Below, piece by piece: positions 57,860 through 58,359 of a DNA stretch of 64,000 nucleotides. The stretch's first letter is position 1. Each line of letters starts with the position of its first letter. The stretch is from positions 3,616,001-3,680,000 of the forward strand of contig CM000150.2 of assembly GCA_000004695.1 (NCBI GenBank), written 5' to 3'. A program made the translations under genes and the position numbers. This DNA comes from Dictyostelium discoideum (lineage: Eukaryota). The notes under the pieces are model-generated. The model searched no databases. It saw only the letters and a list, made by a program, of their open reading frames with translations, and was not told the DNA's origin.

Positions 57860-58359
57860 ATGACAACCGTATGTAGTAATAATATAACCAACCTTTTTTT
57901 TTAAAAAATATTTAATTATTATTATTATTCAGAATATTATAAAAGAAATAAATGAAAAAATATTAATACTAGAAAATATTTTTTTTTTTTAAATTTATAT
58001 GATTAGTTTGAAGAAGCTGCTCAAAAAGTTAAAGAATTCACCAAGAAACCATCAAATGATGAATTATTAAGCCTTTATGGCTTATATAAGCAAGGAACCG
58101 ATGGTGACTGCAATATTAGCGAGCCATGGGCCGTACAAGTTGAGGCAAAGGCCAAGGCAAGTGTTTTTTTGATATAAATGGAGCAATTCTACTGCAAACT
58201 GAAAACAAGGATTTTCATACTAACTTTCCCTTTTTTTTTATTTTTTATTTTTATAAAATATAGTATAACGCTTGGAATGCTCTCAAAGGTACCTCAAAAG
58301 AAGATGCCAAAGCTAAATACGTTGCTCTCTATGAACAATTAGCCACCAAATACGCTTAA
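57860..58359 (+). CDS. acbA: Acyl-CoA-binding protein AcbA (84 aa), with a 9-nt first exon and an apparent GC-AG second intron
   Basis: Exons: 57860-57868 (ATGACAACC, donor GTATGT), 58007-58156 (acceptor GATTAG; FEEAAQKVKEFTKKPSNDELLSLYGLYKQGTDGDCNISEPWAVQVEAKAK), 58264-58359 (YNAWNALKGTSKEDAKAKYVALYEQLATKYA*). The product matches ACBP family signatures (KQAT.GD...P......KAKW.AW..LKG.SKEDA). The only in-phase junction for intron 2 uses donor GCAAGT at 58157 and acceptor AG at 58262-58263. Confidence 0.85.

Follow-up and report, generated by a model that had tools for sequence, protein, structure and literature searches.

A GC-AG intron, probably gained in the Dictyostelium discoideum lineage, in the rearranged locus of the acyl-CoA-binding protein gene acbA

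The acbA gene of Dictyostelium discoideum (DDB_G0270658; PMC4605714) was analysed within a 64,000-nucleotide stretch of contig CM000150.2 (assembly GCA_000004695.1), hereafter the window, in which it occupies positions 57860-58359 of the forward strand. We conclude, with a probability of roughly 85%, that intron 1 of this gene is ancient and that intron 2 is a true GC-AG intron of the U2 type, which the D. discoideum lineage gained after losing an ancestral intron. The gene model, with the same junctions, is already present in the reference annotation. The gene structure itself is confirmatory, and the added value appears to be comparative: the sequences of related amoebozoans point to a lineage-specific intron gain in a rearranged locus.

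The window is very A+T-rich, and the acbA coding blocks are conspicuous in it at 38-40% G+C. They encode AcbA, an acyl-CoA-binding protein of 84 aa from which the spore-differentiation peptide SDF-2 is derived. The coding part of exon 1 (57860-57868, forward strand, like all acbA features below) reads ATGACAACC, or Met-Thr-Thr, with the ATG at 57860-57862. It is followed by intron 1 (57869-58006; 138 nt, GT-AG, phase 0, 11% G+C), which runs from ACC|GTATGT to ATGATTAG|TT. Exon 2 (58007-58156; 150 nt, 40% G+C), immediately preceded by GATTAG, encodes Phe4 to Lys53. Intron 2 (58157-58263; 107 nt, GC-AG, phase 0, 23% G+C) separates Lys53 from Tyr54, and exon 3 (58264-58359; 96 nt, 38.5% G+C), with AAATATAG just before it, encodes Tyr54 to Ala84 and the TAA stop.

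Joined, the three coding segments form a 255-nt coding sequence of 84 codons plus the stop. The initial annotation had proposed a comparison with the 84-aa reference AcbA; when run, it gave 100% identity over the full length to the AX4 reference protein (EAL72679.1 / XP_646321.1 / Q5FXM5, Swiss-Prot ACBP_DICDI). The coordinates that the annotation had assigned to exons, junctions, start and stop are exact base for base, and the ORF lists indeed miss the 9-nt segment that holds the start codon. Its description of a 9-nt first exon holds for the coding segment 57860-57868 and falls short for the whole exon, which as transcribed must also include 5' UTR upstream. Upstream ATGs with in-frame donors were rejected, their donors being poor and the resulting peptides low-complexity.

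The product is a single-domain 84-aa ACBP, like those encoded by ACBP/diazepam-binding inhibitor genes (PF00887; human 2fj9, 2cb8). It scores 103.5 bits against the Pfam ACBP profile (PF00887; cut-off 28.3), covering profile positions 2-75 of 76 without gaps, and its residues 3-83 align to residues 4-84 of human ACBP (2fj9_A), again without gaps (E = 4e-21). Other ORFs of at least 35 aa around acbA offered no credible gene, all being low-complexity, out of frame with acbA or part of a decayed downstream copy described below. A search of 56500-60000 on both strands returned no Rfam family. Elsewhere in the window, a 395-aa ORF at 49240-50427 on the forward strand contains over 40 consecutive glutamines along with poly-Thr/Asn tracts, low-complexity coding repeats that are typical of Dictyostelium.

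Gene structures were solved exactly in seven amoebozoans. A profile-based protein search added D. firmibasis, D. purpureum, Polysphondylium violaceum, Heterostelium album and Planoprotostelium fungivorum to D. discoideum and Tieghemostelium lacteum. A phase-0 GT-AG intron follows codon 3 or 4 in 7/7 of these genes, after a first coding segment of 9-12 nt. Judged from this comparison, the position of intron 1 is ancient and common to all amoebozoan orthologues examined. D. discoideum has this start-proximal phase-0 intron in common with the six other amoebozoan ACBP genes and differs from them by a unique internal intron position: the intron at AKAK^YNAW was found in D. discoideum only and is absent from all six other orthologues. 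Its GC donor is also the only one among the 14 introns mapped.

Internal introns are distributed unevenly among the remaining species. D. purpureum, P. violaceum, H. album and Planoprotostelium have a phase-1 intron at DNTT^xQPW, D. purpureum has an additional phase-0 intron at AWST^KKG, and D. firmibasis acbA has no internal intron at all. The internal intron of T. lacteum is also in phase 1 (2180-2256 of locus L001), at QATE^GDNTG, about 7 codons upstream of the site used in the four other species, and could be a separate gain or the product of an intron shift. At the protein level D. discoideum is an outlier, with 56-63% AcbA identity to other dictyostelids, while D. firmibasis and H. album reach 72%. 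When D. discoideum and D. firmibasis were compared by tblastx, the neighbouring genes were 77-99% identical in segments and acbA exon 2 was 70% identical.

The same analysis completed the D. purpureum gene. DICPUDRAFT_28922 is deposited as 'partial', with 81 aa that start at the second exon and with the first coding exon missing. We located the missing exon, ATGTCACTCAAC|GTAAGT, at 2901-2912 of the D. purpureum locus (L005); it is 12 nt long, lies 82 nt upstream of the second exon and brings the product to 87 aa. This partial model illustrates the annotation problem posed by D. discoideum acbA itself, where a 9-nt coding stub and a GC donor show why ORF-based and GT-only gene finders fail in Dictyostelium.

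The phase-1 intron at DNTT^xQPW would be ancestral and would have been lost in the lineage of D. discoideum and D. firmibasis. Ma et al. 2015 scored position 259 of DDB_G0270658 as a site at which D. discoideum has precisely lost an intron (PMC4683709); their listing gives D. purpureum, P. pallidum and D. fasciculatum as species with this intron (PMC4683709 Table S1). Position 259 equals 9 + 138 + 112 and falls in phase 1 of codon 41, the site of the DNTT^xQPW intron. The sum includes the 138 nt of intron 1, so the dictyBase model agrees independently with that length. In the line of descent to D. discoideum, intron 2 would then have arisen at a new position, 38 nt downstream of the lost intron. 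By parsimony over seven taxa and a short protein, the gain probably took place after the split from D. purpureum and, most simply, after the split from D. firmibasis, since one gain is more parsimonious than at least five independent losses.

Intron 2 can be compared with the gains compiled in the same survey. acbA is absent from the 40 putative D. discoideum gains and occurs once in the supplement, in the precise-loss table (PMC4683709). To be called a gain there, an intron had to be confirmed absent in E. histolytica, and for acbA this species is marked '?' (PMC4683709). As with the listed gains, D. discoideum has the intron, while D. purpureum and more distant dictyostelids lack it at the orthologous site; for 38 of the 40, a source sequence was not identifiable (PMC4683709). 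Unlike the listed gains, intron 2 has a GC donor and sits in a locus that is locally inverted and partly duplicated. Apart from the downstream copy and matches to the T tract (intron positions 75-105), intron 2 had no significant match in the window or in eight loci (L001-L008), and a 20-mer from it had no match in viral contigs.

An alternative with some points in its favour takes intron 2 as ancestral, with an independent loss in every other lineage. Losses far outnumber putative gains in D. discoideum (441 against 40; PMC4683709), recurrent loss is known to mimic gain, and D. firmibasis, with no internal acbA intron of any kind, would be one of the species that had undergone it. However, every one of the losses would have to be precise (in D. 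firmibasis, D. purpureum, T. lacteum, the P. violaceum/H. album lineage and Planoprotostelium, at the least), and the species that keep a phase-1 intron 38 nt away have no intron at the Lys/Tyr site. We consider such an origin unlikely and retain a gain of intron 2 as the preferred reading.

The acbA locus has also been rearranged. In T. lacteum and P. violaceum the gene order is acbA (+), a CH-domain gene (-) and hisS (+), and a tblastx comparison against the window showed the same layout in D. firmibasis. In the window, hisS lies at 53575-55164 on the reverse strand, the CH-domain gene at about 55515-56919 on the forward strand, acbA at 57860-58359 on the forward strand, and, at 59566-62227 on the reverse strand, the orthologue of the gene that lies upstream of acbA in D. 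firmibasis. Across 53575-62227 of D. discoideum, acbA alone is inverted relative to both flanks. Because the hisS and CH-domain neighbours are common across species, we regard the acbA genes compared as orthologues. No breakpoint signature was recognisable at the borders of the inverted segment, where the only inverted repeats were A/T runs. The inversion, together with a partial duplication of acbA, would have occurred in the same lineage as the gain of intron 2.

The duplicate is a partial tandem copy that has decayed to a pseudogene fragment (58547-58745, forward strand) and comprises 86 nt from the 3' end of exon 2, followed by intron 2 and pieces of exon 3. Its first 47 nt are identical to the parent and are followed by many substitutions and four deletions; identity is 91.5% in the exon-2 part, 80.2% in the intron and 75.6% in exon 3. 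Deletions have removed 81 parental bases in total, among them 5 nt at the donor and some 48 nt of exon 3, and the acceptor has changed from ATAG to ATGG, with loss of the AG. A GTG-start ORF at 58522-58644 that extends into the copy still reads ...LYGLYKQGTDGDCNI. Since the copy contains the intron, the duplication was later than the gain of intron 2. The 5-nt deletion at its donor is derivable from GC or from GT, so the copy is neutral as to the donor base of the parent.

To define the junctions of intron 2, each GT, GC or AT donor was combined with each AG or AC acceptor nearby. An exact-protein search over all GT/GC...AG combinations had a single solution, which needs the donor AAG|GCAAGT at 58157. 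The initial annotation had named this as the only junction that gives the conserved EAKAK|YNAWNALKG, and the search bears that out. Its further statement that no GT donor works is right insofar as none reproduces the conserved protein; as a statement about phase it fails, since three GT donors would keep the reading frame with this acceptor. The one at 58163-58164 (AGT|GTTTTT, forward strand) lies 6 nt into intron 2 and inserts Ala-Ser, for a product of 86 aa. The other two shorten the protein: the donor at 58139 deletes 6 conserved residues (78 aa) and that at 58133 deletes 8 (76 aa). Read-through of intron 2 was also rejected, with translation stopping after 6 extra codons.

The GC junction scores best by every measure applied. 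Compared with 103.5 bits for the GC junction, the Pfam ACBP score falls to 96.1, 85.2 and 83.1 bits with the GT donors at 58163, 58139 and 58133, respectively. The GC site matches the donor consensus at 7/9 positions, against 3/9, 4/9 and 3/9 for the same three GT sites. Predicted U1 duplexes, computed with the canonical U1 5' end assumed for D. discoideum, have energies of -7.8 kcal/mol for the GC donor, -1.8, -3.4 and -1.1 kcal/mol for the GT sites and -3.5 kcal/mol for the donor of intron 1. In the homologues from our first database search, the spacing from (A/R)K to (Y/W/F)xAW across the junction is identical in 49/49, and none of the 49 has an insertion there, which would make the Ala-Ser insertion unique.

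The clearest other donors in the window resemble the GC site. Six were taken from a heuristic intron finder that was meant to supply a window-specific donor matrix and proved too noisy for it; they read GTAAGT (2), GTATGT (3) and GTAAGC, and each has an A in position +3 and a G in position +5. GCAAGT has both of these bases, in contrast to its GT rivals. The window holds one AAGGYAAGT where 0.69 are expected, so the string shows no enrichment; what gives it weight is its location exactly at the one phase-0 boundary that the protein requires.

The remaining signals of intron 2 are those of a U2-type intron. The 5' splice site AAG|GCAAGT (58154-58162, forward strand) matches the U1-complementary CAG|GUAAGU at 7/9 positions, with C for U at +2, and U1 would pair with AAG|GCAAGU at all consensus positions other than -3 and +2. 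A branch-site-like ACTAAC (58219-58224, forward strand) has its putative branch A at 58223, 40 nt from the 3' splice site, and belongs to the commonest D. discoideum branch motif class, wCTAAy (PMC2483917). A T-rich tract (58225-58253, forward strand) lies between this motif and the acceptor, at a position that fits the polyT peak described 15-40 nt from the acceptor in D. discoideum (PMC2483917). The intron ends in ATAG at 58260-58263, and the GC...AG junctions restore the reading frame. ACTAAC, the T-rich tract and the TAG acceptor would complete the signals for ordinary U1/U2-dependent splicing of a GC donor. We infer from the sequence that the spliceosome cuts at the GC and that U1 of D. 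discoideum has the canonical 5' end.

Introns of the GC-AG class belong to the U2 type; elsewhere in the 5' splice site they are nearer to consensus, which offsets the U1 mismatch at +2 (PMC1557818). Intron 2 resembles the U2-type GC-AG introns of SpliceRack (Sheth et al. 2006, PMC1557818) in its GC and AG ends, its near-consensus donor, and its ordinary branch site and pyrimidine tract. Unlike the typical setting, it belongs to a genome of about 22% G+C in which the class is roughly ten times rarer than on average across species, and its splicing is here deduced from these signals. The rarity that the initial annotation had ascribed to GC-AG introns is borne out by an EST/UniGene survey of 61 species: the 3309 EST-supported D. 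discoideum introns comprise 3298 GT-AG, 3 GC-AG and 8 AT-AC (PMC3033335), and the GC-AG fraction, 0.09%, is the lowest of the 61 species (1.3% overall; PMC3033335 Additional file 1). With U12-type GC-AG introns, whose donor is GCATCC (PMC1557818), intron 2 has the terminal dinucleotides alone in common; its donor GCAAGT, unlike both GCATCC and the (A/G)TATCCTT of other U12-type introns, rules out this class, and U12-type splicing is reportedly absent from Dictyostelium (PMC2846911; PMC11347168).

The rarity of the class gives some weight to another explanation, which attributes the C at 58158 to a sequencing error or a strain-specific difference and takes the true donor to be AAG|GTAAGT. This is the commonest kind of donor in D. 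discoideum, GTAAGT is also common in the window, and one T-to-C change would suffice to produce the observed sequence. Yet the base lies in non-repetitive, unambiguous sequence (GGCAAGTG) with no homopolymer, and GC-AG introns do exist in D. discoideum at a low rate, as the three EST-supported cases attest. The surrounding window, moreover, encodes the AX4 reference protein exactly, although this identity speaks for the annotators' junction and not for a C in the reference, since the protein is independent of the intron's second base. Exact-match scans of JGI metagenome and metatranscriptome contigs for the spliced junction and for the end of exon 2 returned no match. Taken together, the AX4 protein identity and the flanks, the branch site and the T tract indirectly favour a genuine GC-AG intron, and we regard a base difference at 58158 as very unlikely.

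Splicing at the GT of 58163, which would make the 84-aa model a homology-guided annotation choice and the true AcbA an 86-aa protein, is exceedingly improbable: the site has canonical dinucleotides, is in frame with the acceptor and gives a product well above the Pfam threshold, but its donor match and U1 pairing are far poorer than those of the GC site, it is without the A at +3 and G at +5 of all clear window donors, and its insertion, found in none of the homologues, would break the gapless match to human ACBP. As a minor isoform, a transcript spliced at this GT is conceivable.

A more speculative account concerns the origin of intron 2. The intron could be young filler DNA from the double-strand-break or rearrangement episode that inverted acbA and made the tandem copy, and it would then combine a sub-optimal GC donor with an unusually G+C-rich 5' half (23% G+C for the intron, compared with 11% in intron 1). 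Splicing might also be regulated, given a donor that is weak at +2. We regard this account as distinctly improbable. Retention of intron 2 would give a 59-aa product ending ...EAKAKASVFLI*. Judged by homology to the DBI 17-50 peptide of mammals, this product would presumably retain the entire SDF-2 region.

In acbA, a small and well-studied gene, comparison with sequenced relatives shows three events next to one another: an ancestral intron precisely lost, a non-canonical intron probably gained 38 nt away, and a local inversion with partial duplication. To our knowledge, few recent intron gains are well supported. If intron 2 was indeed gained, the locus would be a useful case for how new introns arise, and its interest would rise if the gain were tied to the rearrangement or if splicing were shown to be regulated.

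Intronless ACBP genes were also observed on giant-virus-like metagenomic contigs (L002 69-344, L003 70-345 and L009 6001-6267). The contigs include one IMG/VR GVMAG and a 17-kb contig with DNA polymerase B among orphan genes. The similarity of one ACBP, P0004, to AcbA suggests that genes may have been exchanged between a D. discoideum-like host and a virus. P0004 is 55% identical to D. discoideum AcbA, compared with 33-47% to the other sequences examined, and the two proteins have GDCNISEPWAVQ(I/V)EAKxKYNAWN in common.
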